Assembly (NCBI GenBank): GCA_964387845.1
Contig: CAYLXA010000008.1
Location: forward strand, 1 to 64,000
Direction of reading: 5' to 3'
DNA length: 64,000 nucleotides
From: an uncultured bacterium
GTDB taxonomy: Bacteria; Omnitrophota; Omnitrophia; Omnitrophales; Abzuiibacteriaceae
Position 1 is the stretch's first letter, and each line of letters opens with the position of its first letter. Shown piece by piece: positions 561 to 54,888 of the stretch. A model generated the notes under the pieces. The model ran no database searches. It saw nothing but the letters and a program-made list of their open reading frames with translations, and was not told the origin of the DNA. The position numbers and the translations under genes are program-made.

Positions 561-1628
561 ATGCCGTCAATTTCTGAAATTTTAAATCAGCCCACAACAC
601 CGTGGATTTATGGCTCCGCTGTCACCCTTAGCTGGATCATTTTTGCTTTTATTTTGAAGCGAATTATTATCAGCCGCTTGAAGCATCTTACCGAAAAAAC
701 CTCGTTTCATTTTGATGACATCATCGTTACTTCAATTTCAAATCCGCTTAATCTTCTTATTTTAGCTTCAGCGCTCGTTGTTTTTAATCAGCTGGTGCCC
801 ATAGATTCCGAAGCCGAAAAACTTGTCCAAATCATATTCAAAACCTCGATTATCTTTTCCGGAGTTCTTTTCGCGGATCATTTTGTCAGAAGTTTAATTG
901 ATAAAAATCAGCGCCGAATTCAAGTCGGAATTTCACCGACCGTTTTACGCAATTTAGCAAGCGCGGTTATTATAGGAAGCGGTGTTTTAATCCTGCTCGA
1001 TCTCCTGGGGATTTCCATTACGCCGCTTTTGGCATCGCTTGGTATAGGATCGCTTGCAGTCGGCCTCGCGCTTCAGGATACGCTGACCAATTTTTTCTCC
1101 GGAGTTTATGTATCAATGGACCGCCCGATCCGCGTTGGCGATTATGTGAAGTTAGAATCCGGCGAAGAGGGTTACGTAACGGAAATCGGCTGGCGGAGCA
1201 CACGTGTCAGGACGCTTCCCAATAATCTAATTATTGTCCCGAATCACAAACTAACCTCCTCCATTATCACCAATTATTATTTGCCGGATCAGGAAATGGC
1301 TGTTTTGGTGCAGGTCGGTGTTCATTACAATAGCGACCTCGAAAAGGTGGAGCGTGTGACGATCGAAGTCGGTGAATCTGTTATGAAAACCGTAGAGGGC
1401 GGCGTGCCGAGTTTTAAGCCTTTTATTCGCTATCACACGTTTGATTCATCAAGCATCAACTTCACGGTCATTTTGCGCGGGAAAGAATATGTCACTCAAC
1501 ATTTGATCAAGCACGAATTTGTAAAAGCGCTTCAAGCGCGATACCGCAAAGAGGGCATCGTGATTCCGTTCCCGATCCGGACACTCGAGTTTTCTGAGGA
1601 AGCTGTCCAGGCTTTCAAACGGTCTTAA
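561..1628 (+). CDS. Small-conductance mechanosensitive channel, MscS family
   Basis: N-terminal TM helices followed by the MscS signature LASLGIGSLAVGLALQDTLTNFFSGVYVSMDRPIRVGDYV. 355 aa. ATG at 561. Confidence 0.85.
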   Translation: MPSISEILNQPTTPWIYGSAVTLSWIIFAFILKRIIISRLKHLTEKTSFHFDDIIVTSISNPLNLLILASALVVFNQLVPIDSEAEKLVQIIFKTSIIFSGVLFADHFVRSLIDKNQRRIQVGISPTVLRNLASAVIIGSGVLILLDLLGISITPLLASLGIGSLAVGLALQDTLTNFFSGVYVSMDRPIRVGDYVKLESGEEGYVTEIGWRSTRVRTLPNNLIIVPNHKLTSSIITNYYLPDQEMAVLVQVGVHYNSDLEKVERVTIEVGESVMKTVEGGVPSFKPFIRYHTFDSSSINFTVILRGKEYVTQHLIKHEFVKALQARYRKEGIVIPFPIRTLEFSEEAVQAFKRS

Positions 1629-9231: not shown

Positions 9232-10617
9232 ATGAAACAGCGGAATTTGCCGTCAACTTTTGGCAAGCACAGGCAGGTTATCTTATTTTTGATTGCGATA
9301 GCGGCTGCTTTTGCAGCTTATTTATTTTTACCTGCCGGCTGCCCCGAGCCGGCGCGCAGAGCTTCCGTTATTTTCATTGTCGCGGCTTTTCTGTGGGCAT
9401 TTGAGATTATTCCCCTCCACGCAACCGCGATTGTGGTTGTGTTGGCGTCTATTTTTCTACTTGCTTGGCCGGGCGGCGTTCTTGAAATGGATAACAACGG
9501 CTATCAAATTTTTCTAGCTCCGTTTGCCAATCCCATCATCATGTTGTTTTTCGGAGGATTTGTATTAGCCGCGGCTTTGCATAAGCACCACATTGACGAA
9601 TGGCTTGTCCAAAAACTGATCCGCATATTCGGAACAAAACCTTTTTGGCTTTTGCTTGGATTTGTCATGACGACCGGATTTGTTTCCATGTGGATCTCCA
9701 ATACGGCAACAACGGCAATGATGCTGACAATGATCACCCCAATTCTTGCGGATGAGAGGAATAGTCCAAAATTTAAAACCGCTTTGGCGCTGGCCGCTGC
9801 ATTTGCGGCCAATGTGGGCGGAATCGCAACGCCCGTCGGGACGCCGCCGAATGCAATTGCGCTCGGTATTTTATCTGACCGCAGCATTCATGTCAGTTTC
9901 CTTCAATGGATGATGATGGCATTTCCGCTCGCGGTATTTTTATTGGCGGCAACCAGTGTCACATTATTCTGGATGTTTGGAAGAAACCAAAAAAATGTTT
10001 TTATTCCGGAAATACAAGGTGCCGAGATCAATTTGAAATCAAAAAGCGCAGCTGTTATCGGCCTTTTGACTATTATTTTGTGGTTAACTTCAACTTGGCA
10101 CCATATCCCGGAATCTGTTGTAGCGCTTTTGGCCGTTGGTTTGCTGTCAAGCTTTCAATTAATTGATCACGACGATTTAAAAGGAATCGGGTGGGATATT
10201 CTGATTTTGATGTGGGGCGGTTTGGCGCTGGGCCGGGCGATTGAAATAAGCGGGCTGGGGAAATGGCTTGTCACGATGCCGGTATTTTCAGCGGAAGGGC
10301 ATATCTTAATAATCGCTTTCTCGCTTTTGACTGTTTTTCTTTCCATCGTGATGAGCAATACCGCAACGGCGGGCCTGGTGATTCCGATTGCGATGAGCGT
10401 CGGCACGGCCGACCCGGTTGTTTTGGCGGTTGTCATTGCTTTGTCGGGCTCTTTCGACATGATTTTGCCTGTTTCGACACCGCCGAATGCGATGATTTTT
10501 TCCACAAAAGCAGTTCGTTCGGTAGACATGCTGAAAGCAGGCGCTGCTGTCAGTGTAATCGCGCTTATTTTATTGCTCGCGGGCTATCCATTTTTTATCG
10601 AGAGGTTTTTGTCATGA
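9232..10617 (+). CDS. Anion permease of the ArsB/NhaD superfamily (SLC13/DASS-like)
   Basis: Duplicated TPPN hairpin motifs (ANVGGIATPVGTPPNAIALG and MILPVSTPPNAMIFST). 461 aa, polytopic. Confidence 0.65.
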   Translation: MKQRNLPSTFGKHRQVILFLIAIAAAFAAYLFLPAGCPEPARRASVIFIVAAFLWAFEIIPLHATAIVVVLASIFLLAWPGGVLEMDNNGYQIFLAPFANPIIMLFFGGFVLAAALHKHHIDEWLVQKLIRIFGTKPFWLLLGFVMTTGFVSMWISNTATTAMMLTMITPILADERNSPKFKTALALAAAFAANVGGIATPVGTPPNAIALGILSDRSIHVSFLQWMMMAFPLAVFLLAATSVTLFWMFGRNQKNVFIPEIQGAEINLKSKSAAVIGLLTIILWLTSTWHHIPESVVALLAVGLLSSFQLIDHDDLKGIGWDILILMWGGLALGRAIEISGLGKWLVTMPVFSAEGHILIIAFSLLTVFLSIVMSNTATAGLVIPIAMSVGTADPVVLAVVIALSGSFDMILPVSTPPNAMIFSTKAVRSVDMLKAGAAVSVIALILLLAGYPFFIERFLS

Positions 10618-29359: not shown

Positions 29360-29369
29360 CGCGATAGGC

Positions 29370-29428
29370 GTCATCCTGAACGAAGTGAAGGATCTAAGAC
29401 CTAGATTCTTCGCTCCGCTCAGAATGAC
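29370..29428. repeat. MITE-like hairpin repeat, empty copy A (arms GTCATCCTGAACGAAGTGAAGGATCT / AGATTCTTCGCTCCGCTCAGAATGAC)
   Basis: Imperfect 26-bp inverted repeat with a 7-nt loop, between convergent genes. The same arms recur at 49640-49718 and flank the GIY-YIG gene at 54509-54867. Confidence 0.6.
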
Positions 29429-29438
29429 GGAAAAGTAG

Positions 29439-31969: not shown

Positions 31970-33213
31970 ACGGAACGGTTTGGGATGTTGCGGTGATCGG
32001 CGCGGGCGCCGCGGGTTTGATGGCGGCGATTACCGCTCAGCGCGAGGGATTGAAAGTTCTGCTGCTGGACGGGAAAGAAAAAATCGGCGCCAAAATTTTA
32101 ATGTCGGGCGGCACGCGCTGTAACGTGACAAACGACCGGGTCAGCGAAAATGATTACGAGAGCGAAAACCTGCGCTTTGTGAAGCATGTTTTGAGTGCAT
32201 TTACATCCGAAAAAGCCATCCGGTTTTTTGATGATCTCAATGTCAAATTGGTTTTGGAACTCGGCGGAAAATATTTCCCGGAAACCCACTCCGCGAAAAC
32301 CGTTTTAGACGCATTATTAAAGGAAGCAAAACGCCTCGGCATTGAGCTCAAAGCCGGCCAGAAAATTACCGCCGCAAAATTTAATTCCGGCTATTTCACA
32401 ATTTCAGGGCCTAAATTTTCTTATCAAGCTAAAAACATTGTTTTATGCACCGGCGGGCTTTCGTATCCTTCAAGCGGAAGCGACGGCACGGGTTATGAAA
32501 TCGCAAAATCGTTCGGGCACACGCTCATTGAAACCACGCCGGCATTAACGCCGCTTTTAACCGATGACCGGAATTGGAAAAGCCTGTCGGGTATAACGCT
32601 CAACGCAGAACTTACGCTTTGGCTGAACGCAAAGAAACATAAAACCTTCCGGGATTCCTTTTTATTTACGCATTTTGGTTTCAGCGGTCCGTCGGCATTG
32701 AATATCAGCCGCTATTGGGTTCGGAATCAAAAATCAGCCAAGCTGACCGCTAATTTTCTGCCGGAAATCAAAGAGGATGATTTCGAAAACAAACTTATGG
32801 AAGCGGCAAAATCAAATCCCGCAAAGCTGTTCAGGAATTTTCTTTCTGAAAATTTTCCAGACCGCTTCGCGGATGTCATCATAAAAAAGGCCGGTATTCC
32901 AGAATCAGTCAAATTGAATCAATTAACCAGGGAAAACCGGGCATCGCTGATCAAAACCATATTTTCATCGCATCTTTCCATAACCGGGGTTTATGGGTAT
33001 CAAAAGGCAGAAGTAACGGCAGGCGGCATCAATCTCGATGAAGTAGATTCAAAAACGCTGGAGTCAAAACTTCAAAAAGGGCTTTTCTTCGCCGGCGAGA
33101 TTTTAGATGTGGATGGCCGGATCGGCGGATTTAATTTTCAGTGGGCGTGGTCGAGCGGAACCGTCGCGGCGCGCGCTATTTCTGCGACCACTGTCCGTTC
33201 GGAAGCTGAATGA
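31966..33213 (+). CDS. HI0933/BaiN-family FAD-dependent oxidoreductase
   Basis: N-terminal VAVIGAGAAGLMAAITA Rossmann motif. KILMSGGTRCNVTN is typical of HI0933-like flavoproteins. ATGA overlap with the upstream stop. Confidence 0.8.
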   Translation: MNGTVWDVAVIGAGAAGLMAAITAQREGLKVLLLDGKEKIGAKILMSGGTRCNVTNDRVSENDYESENLRFVKHVLSAFTSEKAIRFFDDLNVKLVLELGGKYFPETHSAKTVLDALLKEAKRLGIELKAGQKITAAKFNSGYFTISGPKFSYQAKNIVLCTGGLSYPSSGSDGTGYEIAKSFGHTLIETTPALTPLLTDDRNWKSLSGITLNAELTLWLNAKKHKTFRDSFLFTHFGFSGPSALNISRYWVRNQKSAKLTANFLPEIKEDDFENKLMEAAKSNPAKLFRNFLSENFPDRFADVIIKKAGIPESVKLNQLTRENRASLIKTIFSSHLSITGVYGYQKAEVTAGGINLDEVDSKTLESKLQKGLFFAGEILDVDGRIGGFNFQWAWSSGTVAARAISATTVRSEAE

Positions 33214-33577
33214 GATCACCGGAGCGGGCATTCTCGCGCTGCACTTCCGCAAAAACAGTTTGAACTTTTGCCAGGCCGCCTGAGCCAAGCTGATTCTGGC
33301 TGACGATGGCGTTGTAAATCACCATGCGGTCGGCGTTTTCTTCCTGCGCAATTCCCGAACCAACCGGAGAAGGTTTCCGGATTTCAACCAGCCCGCCGTT
33401 ATTTTCGCCGATGATGCCTTGTGCTTTCAAGCTCTGGAGTTCCCCAAACCGCGCTTTTCGTGCATCGAGTGCATTCCGGACTTCCGGCGTCATTTCTTTG
33501 ATGTCATAATTTTCTGCCGATGCCGAAGATGCCAGCATGAGAAGACCAATGATTGAAAGCGCAATTATTTTTTTCAT
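33176..33577 (-). CDS. YdbL-like (DUF1318) periplasmic protein
   Basis: Signal peptide, 133 aa. It lies downstream of a YnbE-like lipoprotein and a YdbH-like gene, in the same order as the E. coli ydbH-ynbE-ydbL operon. Confidence 0.5.
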   Translation of the reverse strand: MKKIIALSIIGLLMLASSASAENYDIKEMTPEVRNALDARKARFGELQSLKAQGIIGENNGGLVEIRKPSPVGSGIAQEENADRMVIYNAIVSQNQLGSGGLAKVQTVFAEVQRENARSGDLIQLPNGQWSQK

Positions 33578-33582
33578 GATTG

Positions 33583-33753
33583 TTACCTCCCGGCGACCAT
33601 ATCTTCGATGTTGGTAGCTGTATTTTTAAGTCCGCGGATATCGACTGTGATGTTGGCGTTAATGGTAATAGGACGGTTCGGATCGCCGACGGTTTTGACC
33701 GTGCAGCCCGTTATCAAAATCAGCACTGCAGAAATCAGAAAATATTTTTTCAT
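33583..33753 (-). CDS. YnbE-like small lipoprotein (56 aa; below the ORF-track size cutoff)
   Basis: The reverse complement gives MKKYFLISAVLILITGCTVKTVGDPNRPITINANITVDIRGLKNTATNIEDMVAGR. It has a lipobox ITGC. ATGA overlap with the upstream gene's stop. Confidence 0.55.
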   Translation of the reverse strand: MKKYFLISAVLILITGCTVKTVGDPNRPITINANITVDIRGLKNTATNIEDMVAGR

Positions 33754-34601
33754 GAGGCTTTAACGATTCCCATTAGTTGAGCCAAGTCGGTAAACGAATT
33801 TTGCTCATCCAGACGAATCAGCATATTGATATTAAGGTTTAGATTATAATCCGGAACCAGCATTTTTAAAATCACCTTTAATTGATTCGACCGAATCGTA
33901 TTTAAATGAAGTTCCGCAGTTTTATACCGCACAAGCCCGTTTAAAGATGCCAGCTGAAAAGCAGCTTCCTTGGAAGCCTGTGTCGGCAAGTAAGGCCTGA
34001 GGAGCCCAAAGAATTTGCCCTGCAAAAACCCGCCGGGATCCTTGACTGCGAGAACTACTTCTAAATTAGTGCTGCCTTTGTAATCCGTTCCGGCCTGTAC
34101 GATGCCGCTCAGTTTTCCGGTTGATCCCTTCAAATTGTCGGCATTGAGCCAAACAAGTTCCTCGAGACCGATGTCAATCACATTCAGATGAATTGTTAAT
34201 AGCCACTTCGGAAATTCGCGAATTTTCGCCTGTCCGTCAATTCCGATATGGCTCGAGCCGTCGAAATGAGCACCGCGGAATTCAAAATCTAAACCGTTTG
34301 GTTTTAAAACATGGTAAACGGGATTTTTTGAATCTATATTTCGAATCGTAATCGGAATCGGCCCGCTATCAGATGATAGGATAAATTTTAAATTCTCAAT
34401 TTTAAGTTTTAAGTTTCGATCTAAAAATGCTTTCTCGATTTTTGTTTCGCCGGCTGAAAATTCCCTTGCTGAATAATCAATCATAGATTCGAGGGCTTTC
34501 CTCAGTAATTCCTGATGAAATCCCAGGGCAAAGCAGGCTACGAACCCTGCTAATAGGGAAATGAAAAATATTTTTGATACTATGTGACGCTTCATATACA
34601 A
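33750..34601 (-). CDS. YdbH-domain (DctA-YdbH/AsmA-like C-terminal domain) protein, short form
   Basis: 283 aa with a single N-terminal TM. Operon context with ynbE/ydbL-like genes. The domain call is inferred from synteny rather than a clear motif. Confidence 0.4.
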   Translation of the reverse strand: MYMKRHIVSKIFFISLLAGFVACFALGFHQELLRKALESMIDYSAREFSAGETKIEKAFLDRNLKLKIENLKFILSSDSGPIPITIRNIDSKNPVYHVLKPNGLDFEFRGAHFDGSSHIGIDGQAKIREFPKWLLTIHLNVIDIGLEELVWLNADNLKGSTGKLSGIVQAGTDYKGSTNLEVVLAVKDPGGFLQGKFFGLLRPYLPTQASKEAAFQLASLNGLVRYKTAELHLNTIRSNQLKVILKMLVPDYNLNLNINMLIRLDEQNSFTDLAQLMGIVKAS

Positions 34602-34691
34602 TCTCAGAAGTCAGAAATCAGATGCCAGATGTCAACGTAACTAACTCGATTATAATTCTGTCTTCTGTTATCTGTCCTCTGTTTTCTTAGT

Positions 34692-34931
34692 TTGGAGGTA
34701 ACTATGTTCGACCAAATCAAAGTGATGATGAAGATGATGCAGGACCCGGACTTTCGGGCATTTATTTCACATCCGAAAGTTCAGGAAGTTTTTAAGGATC
34801 CGGCGTTTCAGGATGTGATTAAATCAAAGGATCCTGCGAAGGTGATGGCACATCCAAAGATGCAGATTTTGATGTCAAACCCCGAAGTTGCAACTCTTAT
34901 TCGCAAGGTAGATTTCACAAAATTTACGTGA
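34692..34931 (+). CDS. Hypothetical small protein with internal DP-x-F-rich repeats
   Basis: 79 aa. Repeats HPKVQEVFKDPAFQDVI / HPKMQILMSNPEVATLI. Confidence 0.4.
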   Translation: MEVTMFDQIKVMMKMMQDPDFRAFISHPKVQEVFKDPAFQDVIKSKDPAKVMAHPKMQILMSNPEVATLIRKVDFTKFT

Positions 34932-35002
34932 TTTTTGGCTTAGAAATTACAGGTAAAAAACAGTAACTAATTTAAATAGTTATAAAAAACTTATAAAAGT
35001 AC

Positions 35003-35031
35003 TTGACAAGTACCTGTCATAGTGTTAAATT
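35003..35031 (+). promoter_or_regulatory. Candidate sigma70 promoter (TTGACA-17-TAAATT with an upstream TG) followed by the 7-bp inverted repeat ATATATG-N9-CATATAT
   Basis: TTGACA at 35003-35008. 17-nt spacer. TAAATT at 35026-35031. The palindrome at 35040-35062 sits at about +2 to +25. Confidence 0.35.
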
Positions 35032-35518
35032 AACCGTAGATATATGAAATTAATCCATATATCCGGTATTTCGGCAGATAGATAAATTAAACAGTGACTT
35101 GCAGTGCCGAAATCAGTACAATGCAGGTCGCAATTCAAATGGCACTTGATGAGCCGCTCGAATTGCCGGCAGAATTAAGCGACTCTCTGGGCTGGATAGA
35201 GAGGGATTTAACATGAAAACCAATAGCTTAAAGTTCTGCTACTCCCGCTTAGACCCGACTCAAAAATCTTCTCTTTCCGCCGTCTTTTCCGATTTGTTCT
35301 CAGGCATCCAAAAATTCAACACCGTTTATAAACGCCAGGGCGAAGGTGTGATTTCAATCGAAGCGCTCAGGACACCGCGCCACCCGCGCGGTGCCAGACA
35401 AACGAGCGGCCACCCGCCGCTTAACCAACTGGCACCGAGCCGTATCGGTCGAATCCGCGCAGCTAGTCTGCAGCGTCCTCTCTGGCCTTCTGGAGCCTGT
35501 CTGCCGGCGGGTGACGGA

Positions 35519-35557
35519 AGCCGGGGAGTTCGTCCCGGCGTTTACCTTTTTTGATTT
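35519..35557 (+). terminator. Candidate intrinsic terminator (GCCGGG-gagttcgt-CCCGGC followed by TTTACCTTTTTTGATTT)
   Basis: GC stem plus T-tract at the end of the GC-rich transcribed region, immediately before the conserved leader. Confidence 0.4.
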
Positions 35558-35560
35558 AAC

Positions 35561-35653
35561 ATCCGGCAGCGAACAACGAACACTTGCGCAAATGCGCGAG
35601 TGCCATCTCGCGGGGCTTAAGGATAGCCCCGTCTCGATAGGAGGAGAATCAAA
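35561..35653 (+). promoter_or_regulatory. Conserved structured 5' leader, copy 1, upstream of the secreted-protein gene
   Basis: It shares ATCCGGCrG..ACGAACACT..GCGAGTGCCATCTC..hairpin..TCTCGATAGGAGGAG with the leader at 36219-36312. Both variable hairpins change by compensatory substitutions. Confidence 0.45.
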
Positions 35654-36172
35654 ATGAGAATGATAAACCTCATATTATTGGTACTAGGGATATTGACGAT
35701 TTCCGGACCAGCATTTGCTCAAAAGCCATTAGCTGATTATGGCAACGTACCTCAAAATGCGGTGAGTGGAGTTGCGGACGCAGAACCGCCTTTTATTTTG
35801 GAGCTCGACGCGGGAGGCAATCAGTTTCGGGGAGGCAGGCAAATCGTGGTTAACCTTGATTTCACGAATACGTCTTCCTCAGCTAGGGTAGACAACATTG
35901 AGTTTGCTTTCGGTATCACGCCTGCCAGCGAACCTGCGAATCCTGTTTTTCAGGATTACGGCATTGTTGATAGTGCCTTTTCACGCGGCGGAAAATATAC
36001 GATCTATACCGCAAAAGTCGTACTGACAACCGGCGATTACGATGTTTGGAGTATAGTCACTTCGACCGATCAATTTGGCAATTATTCGAACGGCTGGACA
36101 AAAAAACGAATTGTGGTAACTGGCGGTCCGATACCTGTTCAATCGACGGATGTTGCGGTAGGTAAGTCATAA
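35654..36172 (+). CDS. Small secreted protein (172 aa), function unknown
   Basis: GGAGGA SD. Signal peptide MRMINLILLVLGILTISGPAFAQ. First gene of the tandem secreted-protein array. Confidence 0.6.
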   Translation: MRMINLILLVLGILTISGPAFAQKPLADYGNVPQNAVSGVADAEPPFILELDAGGNQFRGGRQIVVNLDFTNTSSSARVDNIEFAFGITPASEPANPVFQDYGIVDSAFSRGGKYTIYTAKVVLTTGDYDVWSIVTSTDQFGNYSNGWTKKRIVVTGGPIPVQSTDVAVGKS

Positions 36173-36218
36173 AAATAAAGTTTAAACCAACAATCGGGAC
36201 TGTCCCGGATTCAAAACA

Positions 36219-36312
36219 ATCCGGCGGAGAAAGACGAACACTCACACATGATGTGCGAGTGCCATCTCTCGAGACTCAAAGAAGTCTCGTATCGATAGAG
36301 GAGGAATAAAAA
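36219..36312 (+). promoter_or_regulatory. Conserved structured 5' leader, copy 2
   Basis: See copy 1. Its hairpins CACATgATGTG and CGAGACtcaaagaaGTCTCG replace GCGCAaaTGCGC and CGGGGcttaaggataGCCCCG. Confidence 0.45.
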
Positions 36313-38190
36313 GTGAATACTATGAAAGTAAATACTGCCGTAGCGTGGTTAACTTTGTATCTAGGAAATACCAAACTTGTAAAAAATAGTCGTTGCCTAG
36401 TGATTGCACTTGCATTGATGGGTTTTCCACCGCTGTTATTTGCAGAAACTCCAACTTTTGATTGGCTCCGAACCGTTCAAAATTTACAGGATGCACATAC
36501 TTCAACTGCTCATAAAGTCGCAGTTGACTCTGAGGGGAATGTTATCGTGATCGGACACTTCCATGGAACGATGAATTTCAATCCCGGACAAAATCCGCCT
36601 GTTTTGTTAACTTCCACCAATAGCTTCTATAATATTTTTATAACCAAGTACCGGCAAAACGGAGACCATGTTTGGACAAAAGCGATAGGTGGAGATTATT
36701 CTACTCTCTCTTTCTCGTCTTTTTTGGGGGTTGATCCCTACAGTCATCTTGTCATCGATCAAGACAATAACATTATTATTGCAGGCTACTTTGTAGGTTC
36801 GTCCGATTTCGATCCTTCTGAAGACACTGACATTCATGAGTCTAAGGGAGGGCGTGATATTTTTATTACAAAACTTTCGAATGATGGCTCCTATCAATAT
36901 ACTGTTACGATGGGCGGCGAAAGAGACGACATCCCTCTTGACCTTGCTCTTGACGCAACAGGTAGTTTGGTGCTCACCGGATTTTTTACTTCACCAGCTG
37001 TCGATTTTGATCCTACTTATGAAGGAACCGATACTCATCTGCTTCAAAGCAGTGTGGGCGGTTTTATAACGAAACTTGGCAACAATGGATCGTATGAATG
37101 GACACATACCTTTGACGGGTTCCCGAACGGTTTGATGGCGGGGAAAAGTGTGGCGATTAATCGTTCGAGAGAAATTTATGCTATGGGCATATTCCAAGGT
37201 CAGGTTGATTTTGATCCTACTGAAAACGAAGATATCCGCACCTCTAACGGCGAGCGGGATATTTACCTGACCAAATTTTCACCCAATGGAGCTTATATTT
37301 CCACGTTGATTTTTGGTGGCTCTCTGCGAGAACGGCCGACGGCAGTTCGAATCGATTCCCAGGATAACCTATATTTAACAGGCTCTTTTAATGACCGTGT
37401 TGATTTTGATCCAACAGCGGGCGAAGATTTTCACGAAGCCGTGAATATATGCGCTCCCAACGTCTGCGGTGATATTTTCATAACGAAAGTCACGGCTGAT
37501 CATTCTTACCAATGGACTAAAACCATAGGAGCGCCGGTATTGAATCGTCCTTACTATATGCACTTGGATTCAGAGGGCAATGTTTATTTGACCGGTAGTT
37601 TTGGTGGGACAATTGATTTTGATCCAACCAACGGAACTGATTTTCACACCGCTATCGCCTCTACGGACATTTATGCAGTCAAAATTTATACAGACGGAAG
37701 TTATGGATGGGCAGTCAATATGGGGTATGATTCAGGCCCGTTTGGCAGCGCTCCCACGAATCATCATCTAGGATCCGGTTTGGCAACGGACAGAGATCAA
37801 AATGCAATCTTGGTTGGCTTTTTCCGTTATCAGGTTGATTTTGACCCTGGCCCAGGAATTGTTTGGGGTTTAACTCGCACTTATTTTGAATCTGCTTTTA
37901 TTCTTCAGTTAAGACCACGATATTCCTTGAATATTAATGTGGTCGGAAGAGGAGCAGTTGTCAGACAGCCCGATCTCTCAACTTATGGAAGAGGAGAAGC
38001 AGTGTTGTTAAGAGCGGTTCGGGAAAATGCAAGATGGGATTTTGAGCGTTGGAGTGGAGATTTAATGGGGGCTCGGAATCCGGTGATTATTGGCTTCAAT
38101 CGAGATACTCAAATCACCGCTTGGTTTACTGCTAGAGGACCTGAGCCGCTTGCGATAGATTTTGTACCAAATGATGATAAAAATCAGTGA
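36313..38190 (+). CDS. Secreted SBBP beta-propeller-repeat protein with a C-terminal InlB-B-repeat-like domain
   Basis: GTG start aligned with the gene-1 ATG. At least six about 45-aa repeats ending ...DFDPT..G.D.....G..DIFITKL..DGSY.WT...GG. C-terminal G.G.V....YG.G..V.L.A....FERWSGDL. Confidence 0.7.
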   Translation: MNTMKVNTAVAWLTLYLGNTKLVKNSRCLVIALALMGFPPLLFAETPTFDWLRTVQNLQDAHTSTAHKVAVDSEGNVIVIGHFHGTMNFNPGQNPPVLLTSTNSFYNIFITKYRQNGDHVWTKAIGGDYSTLSFSSFLGVDPYSHLVIDQDNNIIIAGYFVGSSDFDPSEDTDIHESKGGRDIFITKLSNDGSYQYTVTMGGERDDIPLDLALDATGSLVLTGFFTSPAVDFDPTYEGTDTHLLQSSVGGFITKLGNNGSYEWTHTFDGFPNGLMAGKSVAINRSREIYAMGIFQGQVDFDPTENEDIRTSNGERDIYLTKFSPNGAYISTLIFGGSLRERPTAVRIDSQDNLYLTGSFNDRVDFDPTAGEDFHEAVNICAPNVCGDIFITKVTADHSYQWTKTIGAPVLNRPYYMHLDSEGNVYLTGSFGGTIDFDPTNGTDFHTAIASTDIYAVKIYTDGSYGWAVNMGYDSGPFGSAPTNHHLGSGLATDRDQNAILVGFFRYQVDFDPGPGIVWGLTRTYFESAFILQLRPRYSLNINVVGRGAVVRQPDLSTYGRGEAVLLRAVRENARWDFERWSGDLMGARNPVIIGFNRDTQITAWFTARGPEPLAIDFVPNDDKNQ

Positions 38191-38193
38191 GTA

Positions 38194-38245
38194 ATTGGGG
38201 TCAGTTCTTGAAAATTGAACGGCATTCAAAATTCAAGAATCGACC
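38194..38245 (+). terminator. Long hairpin (about 21-bp stem) after the SBBP gene; terminator-like, no U-tract
   Basis: GGGGTCAGTTCTTGAAAATTGAA-cggcat-TCAAAATTCAAGAATCGACC. A paralogous hairpin is at 39788-39840. Confidence 0.4.
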
Positions 38246-38303
38246 TGAATAATCCGGCAAAATAAAAACAATTGCGGCAGCGGGAAAATAGGAGGAATAA
38301 AAA

Positions 38304-39770
38304 ATGAAAACGATAAAAACGATATTAATGTTAATGATAGCAACTTTTTCAATAGCAGGAGCGGCATTTGCAGACGGTTCAATTTCACCGTCGCCGGGTC
38401 TGACCGCGGCGTATGTGAATATTCCGCGTTCAAGCTGGCTGTTTGCATATTCTTCACCAAACGACGGAGCACAAGCACAACTTGTTGGAGACATTGTCCG
38501 CGTGACCCCGCCGGGCGGTAATTTTATTTATTCCATTAGCGGCGGATGGACGTTCGATAATCCGGATACTCCGGAAGTGGAAACGTACGACATGAGTTAC
38601 CTTACGTCACTCGTAGTCGGTCTTAAAGGTGGAATTTATACCACCTATGGGCCGGTTTTGGGGATGAGTTTGGAAGATAGCAGTGGAGCGTCTTCGGGCG
38701 TTTCATTGTTGTCTGTGAGCGACTCAACGGAGCAATATTGGTCGGTTCCAACAACCAATTTTTCCGCTGTTGACCTAACACGTGTCAAAAAAGTGACTTT
38801 TGGCGTTGGCTACACCTATAACGCTTCGGGAACAAATTTTGACATTCGCACTGTCCCGCCATCCTCAAATCCTTGTTTGATCAAAGTCCATGCAGGCGAG
38901 TCCATCCAAGCGGCTATTAATCAAGCCTCTGGCGATGGCTGCATGATTTGGGTTAGCGAAGGTACTTACGCAGAAAATATCACGATTGGGCAAGGCCGCA
39001 CTGACCTGAAAAATCTGACCATTTCCGGTGCCGGCATGGAAAAAACGGTGATTCAAGGCAGCGTAGTTGTTGATTTTACAGATCAAGATGGAAATCAAGT
39101 AGACGGTGGCGTGACCAGCATTCAGGATTTGAAAATCACGAACGCGAATTGGGGCGTGACGGTTGTGAATCAGAATGTAGTACTTGATCGCTTAAGATTG
39201 ACAGGGAATCAAGAGGGGGTTGTTGTCACGAGCGTTCGGGGCAATGTTGTTGTAGAAGGAAGCCCTAACGTGACAATTCAGCGCTCAGTAATCGATCATA
39301 ATACAGGCATCGGCGCTACGTTTTATCACGCCAACGAATTGAAGGCGTTTTTGGTCAATAACACCATTGTTGATAATAGTTTTGTGGGCGTGTTTGCACA
39401 ATTACCAGGACCGCAAACCCATCATCTAACTTTAATCAACAATATCATTTCGAGAAACTTCATCGGAATGGAAAATCATTCCGCGCCGAACGCCATAGTC
39501 AAGACTTTGTATGAATACAATGATAACTATGGAAATACCGCTGTTGATATACAAGGTGTTTTTAATTTTGTAGGAGATCAAAGCACCAATTTAAACGTTG
39601 ATCCGTTGTTTGTAAATCCAGCAGCCGGAAATTATCACTTACGGAGAGCATCGCCTATGATCAATGCGGGTGACCCGGTTTCACCTCGCGATCCGGATGG
39701 AAGCCGTTCGGATATCGGTGCGCTTCCGTTTTTTGGGAGGGTGATGAGTGTTGGATCAATCGAAGTTTAG
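38304..39770 (+). CDS. Secreted right-handed parallel beta-helix (PbH1/pectate-lyase-fold) protein
   Basis: Signal peptide MKTIKTILMLMIATFSIAGAAFA. Beta-helix rungs (NNTIVDNSFVGVFAQ, TLINNIISRNFIGMEN). C-terminal DPLFVNPAAGNYHLRRASPMINAGDP is typical of this family. RBS context GGAGGAATAAAAA. Confidence 0.7.
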   Translation: MKTIKTILMLMIATFSIAGAAFADGSISPSPGLTAAYVNIPRSSWLFAYSSPNDGAQAQLVGDIVRVTPPGGNFIYSISGGWTFDNPDTPEVETYDMSYLTSLVVGLKGGIYTTYGPVLGMSLEDSSGASSGVSLLSVSDSTEQYWSVPTTNFSAVDLTRVKKVTFGVGYTYNASGTNFDIRTVPPSSNPCLIKVHAGESIQAAINQASGDGCMIWVSEGTYAENITIGQGRTDLKNLTISGAGMEKTVIQGSVVVDFTDQDGNQVDGGVTSIQDLKITNANWGVTVVNQNVVLDRLRLTGNQEGVVVTSVRGNVVVEGSPNVTIQRSVIDHNTGIGATFYHANELKAFLVNNTIVDNSFVGVFAQLPGPQTHHLTLINNIISRNFIGMENHSAPNAIVKTLYEYNDNYGNTAVDIQGVFNFVGDQSTNLNVDPLFVNPAAGNYHLRRASPMINAGDPVSPRDPDGSRSDIGALPFFGRVMSVGSIEV

Positions 39771-39787
39771 AGCGCGTTAATGAATCA

Positions 39788-39840
39788 TTGGGGTCAGTTC
39801 TTGAATTTTGAAGACCGTTCAATTTTCAAGAACCGACCCC
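39788..39840 (+). terminator. Paralogous long hairpin after the beta-helix gene
   Basis: GGGGTCAGTTCTTGAATTTTGAA-gaccgt-TCAATTTTCAAGAACCGACCCC. The internal A/T block is swapped between arms relative to the copy at 38194. Confidence 0.4.
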
Positions 39841-39876
39841 AGTAACATTTAGAAGAAAGGTTAAAGGATATTGATT

Positions 39877-49639: not shown

Positions 49640-49718
49640 GTCATCCTGAACGAAGTGAAGGATCTAAGTTCGTAGACCCTTCGCTCTGCTCAGGGTGACA
49701 GGAGTTGCTCAGGATGAC
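49640..49718. repeat. MITE-like hairpin repeat, empty copy B
   Basis: The left arm GTCATCCTGAACGAAGTGAAGGATCT is identical to copy A. The right arm CCCTTCGCTCTGCTCAGGGTGAC is followed by a partial tandem reiteration GTTGCTCAGGATGAC. Confidence 0.6.
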
Positions 49719-53645: not shown

Positions 53646-54518
53646 ATGACTGCCAAACTTTTAGAAGGAAAAATCATAGCCGAAAAGCTGCAGAAGAAAA
53701 TTGCAGCAGAGGTGCGCGATCTGACGTCCAAAACAAAGCAAACGCCCAAAATGGTGGCAATCCGGATTAATGAAGACCAAGCCTCAGAGCTTTATTTGAA
53801 ATCACAGCGGAAAGCCGCGGAGCTTGCCGGCATGAAGCATGAAACGATTACGATTTTGGGTGCGACCGAAAGACAATTAATTCAGGCCATCGAAAAAGCC
53901 AATAAAGACGTATCCATTCATGGCATCATGATTCAAATGCCGCTTCCTCAGGATTTTCATCTCGAAAATATTTTGGATTCCATCGATCACAAGAAAGACA
54001 TCGAAGGCGTCACGAGTTTTAATTTAGGGCAATTGGTTCTCAAGAAAGACAAATTGGTTCCGTGCACGGCGCTTTCCTGCATCACTTTGATTGAAGAGAC
54101 AGGCGAGAAGCTGCGCGGCAAAGAAGCTGTGATCGTGGGCTCCAGCAAAGTCGTTGGGCGCCCGGTTTCGCTTTTACTTTTAGACCGGATGGCAACCGCG
54201 ACGGTTTGTCATATTGCGACTTCAGAAGCCGGGAAGCTTGAATCGCATGTGAAGCGTGCGGATATTTTGGTGGTGGCGGTCGGAAAAGAAAATGTAATTC
54301 CCGGGAAATGGGTCAAAGAAGGCGCGATTGTGATTGATGTCGGGATTAACCGTGTGAACGGAAAAACCGTGGGCGATGTGGAATTTGAAGAAGCAAAATC
54401 CAGAGCCAAATTCATTACGCCGGTCCCGGGCGGCGTGGGCCCAATGACGGTGACGATTTTAATGCACAATTTGGTAACGGCGTACAGGTGGCAGACAGAG
54501 AATGCGTCGTCATTCTGA
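53646..54518 (+). CDS. folD: Bifunctional 5,10-methylene-THF dehydrogenase / methenyl-THF cyclohydrolase FolD
   Basis: MTAKLLEGK..., ...PVPGGVGPMTVTILMHNLV. The last three codons and the stop (SSF*) are supplied by the left arm of the hairpin repeat. Confidence 0.9.
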   Translation: MTAKLLEGKIIAEKLQKKIAAEVRDLTSKTKQTPKMVAIRINEDQASELYLKSQRKAAELAGMKHETITILGATERQLIQAIEKANKDVSIHGIMIQMPLPQDFHLENILDSIDHKKDIEGVTSFNLGQLVLKKDKLVPCTALSCITLIEETGEKLRGKEAVIVGSSKVVGRPVSLLLLDRMATATVCHIATSEAGKLESHVKRADILVVAVGKENVIPGKWVKEGAIVIDVGINRVNGKTVGDVEFEEAKSRAKFITPVPGGVGPMTVTILMHNLVTAYRWQTENASSF

Positions 54519-54888
54519 GCGTAGCGAAGAATCTCTGTTTCGATGAAGAAGGGTTACGTTTATTTGCTTGCGAACAAAGTTAACACTGTAATTTATATCG
54601 GAGTTACAAGCAATCTTGCAAAAAGAATTTGGGAACATAAAAAGAAGCTGGTAGAAGGATTTACAAAGAAATATAACGTAGACAAACTAGTTTATTATGA
54701 AATTTTCGAGTTAGTTGTTGATGCAATAAAAAGAGAAAAGCAAATTAAAGGTTGGGTCAGAAAAAAGAAAGTGGACTTAGTCGAATCACTTAACCCTAAT
54801 TGGAACGATCTATACAAGAACTTAAACGAATAAGATGTACGAGATCCTTCGCTTCGCTCAGGATGACGGGCGAAGGGTTCAGGATGAC
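54509..54888. mobile_element. Putative small mobile cassette: a GIY-YIG nuclease ORF embedded between the two 26-bp arms (terminal inverted repeats) of the same hairpin-repeat family
   Basis: The left arm GTCATTCTGAGCGTAGCGAAGAATCT (54509-54534) is the complement of the right arm AGATCCTTCGCTTCGCTCAGGATGAC (54842-54867; 23/26 match), which is followed by the partial reiteration GGGCGAAGGGTTCAGGATGAC. The interior is about 33% GC against about 48% in the flanks. Confidence 0.5.
54543..54833 (+). CDS. GIY-YIG domain nuclease (UPF0213-type, 96 aa)
   Basis: GYVYLL...IYIGVT.NL..R...H is the GIY-YIG motif. It fills the space between the two repeat arms with 8-nt gaps on both sides. AT-rich. Confidence 0.8.
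   Translation: MKKGYVYLLANKVNTVIYIGVTSNLAKRIWEHKKKLVEGFTKKYNVDKLVYYEIFELVVDAIKREKQIKGWVRKKKVDLVESLNPNWNDLYKNLNE

Follow-up and report, generated by a model that had tools for sequence, protein, structure and literature searches.

Regulatory leaders and RNAs of several described kinds resemble the element reported here, and the closest are the trp, his and pyrBI attenuators, the upstream open reading frames (uORFs) of secM-secA, mifM-yidC2 and ermCL-ermC, the dual-function small RNAs RNAIII/hld, SgrS/SgrT and SR1/SR1P, and the junction-type riboswitches with a terminator platform. Our subject is a leader element at positions 34979-35560, on the forward (+) strand, of a 64,000-nucleotide (nt) stretch of DNA from an uncultured bacterium of the Omnitrophota; we refer to the whole stretch as the window. 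The element lies upstream of genes for secreted proteins and combines promoter sequences, a uORF that begins at ATG 35213 and a four-way-junction RNA that occupies the 3' part of this uORF. What is new here is the fusion of a leader open reading frame (ORF) with a junction-type structured RNA. By analogy, the element would act most like the leader-ORF regulators, that is, by attenuation of the pyrBI type and by coupling of the secM or mifM type. To our knowledge, it is uncommon in bacteria for a structured regulatory RNA to overlap a translated frame, in which it is unwound at every passage.

Like the trp, his and pyrBI attenuators, the element carries a leader ORF with a Shine-Dalgarno sequence (SD) and, upstream of structural genes, a terminator-like hairpin that is overlapped by a larger alternative structure. 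A leader ORF with an SD and a pair of mutually exclusive structures are what mark an attenuator, and both are found here. The leader ORF of pyrBI reaches across the terminator, which exposes the terminator to interference by a translating ribosome, and the uORF described here likewise runs through the terminator-like hairpin. On the other hand, the uORF spans 105-120 codons over its versions, compared to 14-44 codons in the attenuators. We found neither a cluster or run of regulatory codons nor a peptide of about 45 codons or fewer, and no amino-acid run is common to the five uORF peptides that we compared. Instead of a simple antiterminator hairpin, the competing structure is a four-way junction of 155 nt, the ORF goes on to the ribosome-binding site (RBS) of the next gene, and the element has no match among the leader families of Rfam.

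The likeness to secM-secA, mifM-yidC2 and ermCL-ermC lies in a uORF of ~100 codons that ends by the downstream SD, in a conserved intergenic mRNA structure, in a downstream product that belongs to the world of secretion, and in an invariant peptide, KRQGEGV.SIE.LRTP, at the point where structure begins. As in SecM, MifM and VemP, the uORF ends near the downstream SD in four of the five versions, the exception being the annotated frame of the window (99 nt away). However, the invariant peptide is inseparable here from a constraint on the RNA at the nucleotide level, and the downstream genes encode secreted cargo rather than components of the translocase. The uORF product also lacks a known arrest motif and, judged by inspection only of the five peptides, an N-terminal signal peptide, a membrane anchor, a transmembrane segment or any other hydrophobic stretch.

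We compared five distinct DNA versions of the element, one in the window and the others on the contigs L002, L003, L004 and L025. The first three of these contigs carry the three relatives of the 113-amino-acid (aa) uORF product, which are its only relatives in 5.8 billion clustered proteins, and L025 was found through a 90%-identity cluster member of the neighboring DUF1318 gene. All additional contigs were identical to one of the five versions, which by kinship amount to two close groups plus L025. Alignments revealed a conserved stretch that starts ~25 nt before the -35 box and stops where the terminator-like hairpin ends, with little conservation beyond. The element occurs as a single copy and is conserved far better than its neighbors: the adjacent ORF has reached saturation at its synonymous sites and the downstream proteins of the window and L025 share 41% identity, although the GC-rich region of the element retains a nucleotide identity of 85-97%. 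This GC-rich region folds into the following parts:

35329-35544, + strand: four-way-junction domain, the minimum free energy (MFE) fold in each homologue and the RNAalifold consensus; 155 nt long (215 nt in the window)
35329-35344 with 35529-35544, + strand: helix P1, 15 base pairs (bp), which closes the junction
35346-35371 with 35435-35460, + strand: helix P2
35459-35462 with 35468-35471, + strand: P3, a 4-bp hairpin
35478-35501 with 35506-35528, + strand: P4, a long hairpin
35373-35432, + strand: in-frame insertion of 60 nt (boundary +/- ~5 nt) in the P2 apical loop, found in the window only and absent from L002, L003, L004 and L025

No linker separates P2 from P3 or P4 from P1. Canonical pairing is retained in 285 of 285 pair cells (57 pairs in five sequences), and the 14 pairs that vary all remain paired, one of them through a double change from U-A to C-G. 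When the 3' partners were moved by 1-3 columns as a control, the paired share fell from 100% to 35-45%. Transversions or indels affect none of the 114 paired columns, compared to 8 of the 41 unpaired ones (p = 1.4e-5), and the indels respect the fold: the 60 nt in the window fall in the apical loop of P2, 2 nt in L002 add a pair to P4, and a 1-nt indel sits in the internal loop of P2. The G+C content is 0.64-0.65 over 35350-35549, compared to ~0.40-0.45 nearby. Against shuffled sequences, the + strand folds with z = -4.3 (35036-35560) and z = -4.0 (35340-35560), compared to z = -2.3 for the - strand. Since the fold scores differ between strands in this way and many G.U pairs are conserved, the constraint acts on the + strand RNA. 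Judged from these alignments, 35329-35544 is conserved as RNA structure and not as protein.

The junction fold matches no described RNA family in Rfam 15. We obtained no match at E <= 1 for 34000-37000, none at the gathering score for the whole window, and noise only (<= 22 bits, E >= 0.67) for the insertion-free versions L002, L003 and L025; ARAGORN identified no tRNA or tmRNA. An initial annotation of this locus, made from the window sequence, had proposed a promoter-driven structured RNA upstream of secreted-protein genes, and this proposal extends to all five versions. Each part that it described is present where it was placed, including the promoter TTGACA-17-TAAATT, a palindrome, a 9-bp stem, the GC-rich block, two hairpins with CACCC loops, the terminator and two ORFs. 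Its view of the GC-rich part as non-protein also agrees with the conserved structure and with the different frames that homologues use there. Of the checks it suggested, a comparative fold of the homologues left every variable pair paired, and the Rfam search of the segment matched no family. Two of the features that it singled out lie outside the conserved core. Both CACCC-loop hairpins (35374-35392 and 35404-35422) are formed by the 60-nt insertion, which is specific to the window and has no other copy there, and the 9-bp stem is present only in the window and L002.

The junction sits within a reading frame, which in the window is the following:

35213-35554, + strand: uORF of 113 codons, with SD and ATG kept in all five versions; its stop, TGA 35552-35554, lies in the T-tract

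Over the first 38 codons, substitutions relative to L003 are distributed over codon positions 1/2/3 as 12/7/24 in the window (Fisher p = 9e-5) and as 13/6/25 in L002 (Fisher p = 3e-5). The nonsynonymous divergence (dN) is 0.27, the synonymous divergence (dS) is saturated, and the sole indel amounts to one codon. The frame of ATG 35213 is the only one that is open up to the invariant block in all five versions. Since third positions are biased, the SD and ATG are retained and no other frame is open throughout, the uORF is very probably translated. At the N terminus, L004 and L025 share 30-40% of their residues with the other peptides and retain the pattern (K/R)FC ... F..(I/L)F ... (I/F)Q. An extension of the ORF further upstream (MALDEPLEL...) was rejected, since indels of 7, 5 and 8 nt alter its frame among close relatives.

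By the pattern of substitutions, selection at the protein level covers about the first 38 codons and then ends. A 45-nt block that begins at 35327 has one variable position among the first four sequences, and 35327-35376 differs from L003 at 2 of ~46 aligned positions. Essentially no synonymous change is found in 35327-35372, whereas the synonymous sites just upstream are saturated, and over 35438-35557 the differences from L003 are spread over codon positions as 6/8/8. Since the 3' part of the uORF forms the four-way junction, it is constrained at the nucleotide level. Within the domain, the window and L002 are shifted by +1 relative to L003, L004 and L025, and L002 is shifted by a further +2; both read at least 22 domain codons in a frame other than that of the remaining three. 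L003, L004 and L025 have a common domain frame, with the similar peptide KRQGEGVTSIE.LRTP.RIDQSTQ..CSVLSGFLLPVCRRA..VGEF.PAFTF. The earlier suggestion that only the first part of the ORF resembles protein is thus confirmed, with a coding signature of ~38 codons; protein conservation over the full length with synonymous bias, which had been offered as a reason to abandon the RNA proposal, was found for about these first 38 codons only.

The coding signature of the N terminus would also be expected of an ordinary small-protein gene, first in its operon, whose 3' part is GC-rich by chance and for which the fold would be a terminator, an mRNA-stability element or a by-product. Gene callers annotate the ORF in all assemblies, L003, L004 and L025 encode a similar peptide in one domain frame, and the +1 and +2 indels of L002 total 3, all in keeping with such a gene. 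We nevertheless regard it as distinctly unlikely. The window and L002 use another frame for those domain codons, the block at 35327-35372 is nearly devoid of synonymous change next to saturated sites, all helix substitutions keep pairing, and the insertions not only fall in loops but fold themselves. In addition, the uORF product has no match in Pfam, NCBIfam or PHROGs, and AlphaFold2 gave the L003 uORF protein a low predicted local distance difference test (pLDDT) score of 41.

At its 3' end, the junction overlaps the structure that had been annotated as a terminator:

35520-35551, + strand: terminator-like hairpin GCCGGGGAGTTCGTCCCGGC (35520-35539), followed by GTTTACCTTTTTT

This hairpin, GCCGGGG-AGUUCG-UCCCGGC, takes its 5' arm from the 3' strand of P4 and its 3' arm from the 3' strand of P1. 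Since P4 and P1 use both of its arms, the hairpin and the junction cannot form at the same time. In the window, the 7-bp stem, with 6 GC pairs, is directly followed by the T-tract, as expected of an intrinsic (Rho-independent) terminator. The hairpin is also predicted in L002, L003 and L004, with an interrupted T-tract; an uninterrupted T6 is found in the window only, and the other four versions have GUUUAC(C/A)UUU (GTTTACCTTTG/A), whose GUUUA forms the base of P1. In a purely thermodynamic comparison, every fold with the hairpin falls 12-14 kcal/mol short of the stability of the junction. Since the terminator is thermodynamically disfavored and its T-tract is interrupted elsewhere, it would be at best a conditional alternative fold. 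The hairpin and T-tract of the initial annotation are therefore present, but the hairpin is not part of the most stable fold, in which its strands belong to P4 and P1.

The window is where a free-standing dual-function RNA of the RNAIII or SgrS type fits best, and the four homologues do not fit it. Such an RNA would be a ~0.5-kb transcript with a small protein encoded in its 5' part and a 3' domain that acts in trans or as a protein sponge. As in RNAIII/hld, SgrS/SgrT and SR1/SR1P, the transcript of the window would be ~0.5 kb long, with a strong promoter, a 5' small ORF, a multi-hairpin 3' domain and a good hairpin with a T6 terminator, and the insertion supplies C-rich CACCC apical loops. 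The invariant AGGA in the hairpin loop of P2 and the conservation of this single-copy element far above its neighbors would suit such an RNA as well. In contrast to the known dual-function RNAs, the ORF overlaps the structured domain, spanning all of it and ending at the RBS of the next gene in four versions. In the same four versions the terminator is weak, with its T-tract interrupted, and its hairpin is not the favored fold; the C-rich loops are specific to the window. Moreover, the element always lies immediately upstream, on the same strand, of a gene that has no recognizable promoter and for which none is predicted. We consider a free-standing RNA of this kind unlikely, although it is the strongest of the competing explanations.

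Of the earlier suggestion of a small structured RNA or attenuator, the conserved structure stands, but a translated regulatory leader is favored over a free-standing noncoding RNA (ncRNA), since the ORF is open in all five versions and ends beside the RBS of the next gene in four of them. For the same reason, the small ORF is not an incidental one.

The arrangement of P1 and the terminator also recalls the junction-type riboswitches with a terminator platform. Common to both are a junction closed by P1, a 3' strand of P1 that is shared with the terminator, strong conservation of unpaired nucleotides, and peripheral loops that vary and accept insertions. A riboswitch-like ON switch that senses a ligand or a protein could be built from these parts: the P1-closed domain would be the aptamer, and its ligand would stabilize P1 and P4 and allow read-through. 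The multi-helix junction with its invariant junction and loop nucleotides would be in line with such a switch, as would the identity of the P1 3' strand with the 3' arm of the terminator. A tertiary contact between loop and junction is likewise possible: AGGACAC in the P2 loop could pair with GUGUCCU in the P3/P4 junction, with one A.C mismatch in the versions of the window and L002. However, riboswitch aptamers lie in untranslated leaders and recur before functionally related genes, whereas this junction lies in coding sequence, inside a translated uORF, and occurs in a single narrow lineage at one syntenic position with variable cargo. No metabolic gene hints at a ligand, no Rfam 15 family matches, and the junction is more stable than the terminator fold by 12-14 kcal/mol without any ligand. 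An ON switch is, in our estimate, very unlikely, the least probable of the explanations considered.

The translated leader is linked to the gene that follows by where the uORF ends. The distance from the uORF stop to the next ATG is 15 nt in L002, -4 nt in L003 (an ATGA overlap), 20 nt in L004 and 12 nt in L025, and in these four versions the uORF runs 13-25 codons beyond the domain, through AT-rich sequence. Shuffling the spacers gave probabilities of 0.20, 0.31, 0.30 and 0.08 (product ~0.0015). Promoter prediction gave no sigma-70-like site from the domain to the next gene in the window, L002, L003 or L004. In four of the five versions the next gene encodes homologous secreted proteins (162-185 aa), whereas L003 has an unrelated secreted protein there, from which it follows that the element is tied to the position rather than to one particular cargo. 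In the window, two further features lie between or across the uORF and the next gene:

35561-35653, + strand: ATCCGGCA box, followed by a 'leader motif' and the SD of gene 35654
35391-35657 (open from 35351), + strand: +1-frame ORF, in the frame of the L003/L004/L025-type peptide, with an ATGA overlap with gene 35654

The ATCCGGCA box follows the domain in every homologue, and the ~65-nt two-hairpin motif is found in the window only. A second copy of this motif, at 36219-36312, precedes gene 36313, and four base pairs differ between the copies by compensatory changes. Since it is conserved as RNA and no promoter is predicted between it and the domain, the leader motif of the window must be transcribed from upstream. 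The coupling of the element to this motif that had been suggested earlier is consequently a trait of the window, as the homologues lack the motif. We also observed that the box ATCCGGCR, which opens the leader motif, occurs again at 38252-38259; it lies 45-95 nt upstream of three consecutive secreted-protein genes and, in L025, precedes the third gene (ATTCCGGCGGAGAAAGA).

The sequence CUU UUU UGA at 35546-35554 resembles the +1 slip site of prfB, with room for a +1 slip from UUU to UUU, and the +1 frame has a further 34 codons without a stop before the ATGA at 35654-35657. The +1-frame ORF would be reachable from the uORF only by such a +1 shift, and a slip that links the two is only a possibility. 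No SD-like sequence of the kind that, ~3 nt upstream, stimulates the prfB shift precedes the CUU, and the T6-TGA arrangement is absent from L002, L003, L004 and L025. As separate observations at the ends of the uORFs, UUUUUUGAUU (35546-35556) can pair with AAUCAAAA just before the ATG of gene 35654, and in L025 the uORF tail (1530-1585, minus strand) contains a perfect 18-nt tandem direct repeat, CACGTGAAGAACATGATT x2, with the stop TAA abutting the SD of the next gene, AAGGAG.

Upstream of the uORF, the leader contains the following features:

34979-35013, + strand: AT-rich upstream region with the repeats (G/C)TTATAAAA, CTTATAAAAGTA and CTTGACAAGTA, a candidate regulator-binding site
35003-35031, + strand: promoter P1, with TTGACA, a 17-nt spacer, TAAATT and an extended -10 TGn, from promoter prediction and aligned in all five versions
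35039-35063, + strand: palindrome or 5' hairpin GATATATG-N9-CATATATC, at about +1 of the promoter P1 transcript and unique in the window
35068-35076 with 35105-35113, + strand: 9-bp stem ATTTCGGCA/TGCCGAAAT of the initial annotation, in the window and L002 only
35094-35122, + strand: possible second promoter P2, with GTGACT, a 17-nt spacer and TACAAT
35183-35206, + strand: SD-masking hairpin CUCUCU(G)/(U)AGAGAG, which would hide most of the uORF SD AGAGAGGGA (35198-35206)

The equivalent of promoter P1 in L003 and L004 is TTGACA-17-TAATAT with TGn. A perfect palindrome, GTACTTGACAAGTAC, is centered on the -35 box at 34999-35013 and is unique in the window, and the segment that contains it, ATTATAAAAGTACTTGACAAGTACC, is invariant in all five versions. 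The second palindrome, at +1, does not vary in four of the versions; an operator and a 5' stabilizing stem-loop are both conceivable roles. Since it is degenerate without compensation in L025, a sequence-specific site seems a better description than a pure RNA helix. In place of the 9-bp stem, L003, L004 and L025 have unrelated sequence with no compensating changes, and its restriction to the window and L002 puts it outside the conserved core. Between 35094 and 35130, a 10-bp helix model was rejected, as the helix is lost in L025 while the promoter-like hexamers and the 17-nt spacing stay. These hexamers, GTGACT/GTGACA and TA[CAGA]A[AT]T, are found in all five versions with a spacer fixed at 17 nt and variable in sequence, which probably marks a second promoter ~90 nt downstream of the first.

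The invariant or near-invariant blocks of the leader also include GAATTGCCGGCAGAA. All five versions form the CUCUC...GAGAG pairing of the SD-masking hairpin in their MFE folds, around loops that differ in length and sequence. Substitutions in the 5' untranslated region (UTR) relative to L003 are distributed by position as 15/14/14 and its indels measure 1-8 nt. L004 additionally has a 105-nt insertion in the 5' UTR (9860-9965) that comprises two hairpins (CCCCAGCGC...GCGCTGGGG and GTCATGAC...GTCATGGC) and occupies the place of GAGCCGCTCG-AATTGCC in the other versions; it is the second case of a lineage-specific expansion in a loop of the leader RNA.

We read 34979-35560 as a cis-regulatory 5' leader that serves the secreted-protein genes behind it and gates their expression through uORF translation together with the RNA junction, and we judge this reading to have about an even chance of being correct. 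It starts from the observed conservation, RNA fold, coding signature, ORF end positions and mutual exclusivity of structures, from which we infer the gating of downstream expression, its direction and its signal. In such a leader, a strong sigma-70-type promoter, with one palindrome over its -35 box and a second at +1, would produce an mRNA with a 5' UTR of ~175 nt, in which the SD-masking hairpin would limit initiation on the uORF. The folded junction, alone or with a bound factor, would then act as a gate. Ribosomes on the uORF would unwind the junction and reach the downstream RBS, resulting in translational coupling, and the presence or absence of a ribosome may decide whether the terminator-like hairpin replaces the junction behind RNA polymerase. 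In the lineage of the window, a +1 indel, which is shared with L002 and uncompensated in the window, would have brought the uORF stop into a lengthened T6 tract, and an additional structured leader motif with its own strong SD appears between the element and gene 35654.

Several findings weigh against this reading of a translated, gating leader. The N-terminal peptide of the uORF is weakly conserved in L004 and L025 (30-40% identity), and the GC-rich composition leaves two of three frames open in the domain, where the openness of the ORF is no evidence by itself. The uORF of the window ends 99 nt short of gene 35654 and is followed by a good T6 terminator, an arrangement that would suit a separate transcription unit just as well. 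With five sequences, the shuffle control of pairing is not significant. Just one pair is fully compensatory, and the fold draws mainly on one-sided changes that preserve pairing and on the placement of indels. Finally, when the 5' strand of P1 is blocked, the MFE fold retains P4 and not the terminator hairpin. Since P4 is kept under this condition, thermodynamics do not support a simple terminator switch driven by ribosomes.

In a bolder version, the junction would be a new class of sensor RNA in a translated frame, responding to a small molecule, a protein or temperature and thereby setting the passage of uORF ribosomes to the RBS of the secreted-protein genes, as a 'riboswitch in an ORF' that gates translational coupling, and a +1 slip at UUU_UGA in the window would restore the link to the ATGA at 35654. 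We regard this version as improbable.

If the favored reading of a translated regulatory leader is true, three regulatory layers would be contained in 550 nt: tandem promoters that bear operators, a leader that masks an SD, and a uORF that doubles as a junction RNA. The locus would then offer a tractable model for the integration of RNA folding with ribosome traffic, and a way into the control of a variable secreted-protein cluster of an uncultured lineage. Its impact would be limited by a very narrow distribution.

The element was found in one uncultured lineage, with five sequence variants in all the collections searched. A profile search of 1.84 billion representative proteins gave no further family members for the uORF product. 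Two weak extra matches were rejected: P0005 is a repeat protein with ~40% local identity, and P0006 is a translated array of CACAGAGG hairpin repeats in the contig L035, in which our covariance model of the element (R1) detects nothing. A scan of the GTDB genomes with a protein pattern gave no match, and a scan with a 19-mer gave 16 matches that were rejected, since R1 scores them at <=14 bits. The scan of JGI metagenomes returned the contig of L004 and two chance matches and nothing else, and the IMG/VR scan for the element returned nothing. R1 finds one copy per locus in the genome fragments examined. Given this and the lack of a second copy of the GC-rich part in the window, we rejected the idea of a diversity-generating retroelement (DGR) template, a miniature inverted-repeat transposable element (MITE) or another repeat. 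Where flanking sequence exists, the order of the locus is TPR, HI0933-like, DUF1318, YnbE-like, YdbH-like, a 75-79-aa STI1-DP-like gene, the element and the secreted protein(s). The upstream neighbor has three clusters only in the protein collection. Given this and the few relatives in the scans, the host lineage is rare.

Other features of these sequences were noted along the way. The trio of YdbH-like, YnbE-like lipoprotein and DUF1318 (YdbL-like) genes lies divergently upstream on the minus strand (33176-34601) and is kept in all relatives with flanks. Downstream, genes 36313-38190 and 38304-39770 are each directly followed, after the stop codon, by a copy of a 63-nt element (38191-38253 and 39784-39846). 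The two copies are 78% identical, each forms a ~21-bp hairpin, and they could serve as terminators or belong to a small repeat family. Repeats of 27-29 nt that resemble repetitive extragenic palindromic (REP) sequences, GTCATCCTGAACGAAGTGAAGGATCT, occur between genes and in both orientations at 29369-29429, 49640-49668, 54508-54537 and 54842-54868, with two copies 100% identical. The array in L035, an unrelated ENA contig, consists of tandem units of ~170 nt built on AACCACAGAGGCACAGAGGACACAGAGAA hairpins (600-1480) and had been called as the 256-aa 'protein' P0006; its spurious match to the uORF family is a reminder that translated repeats pollute protein databases.

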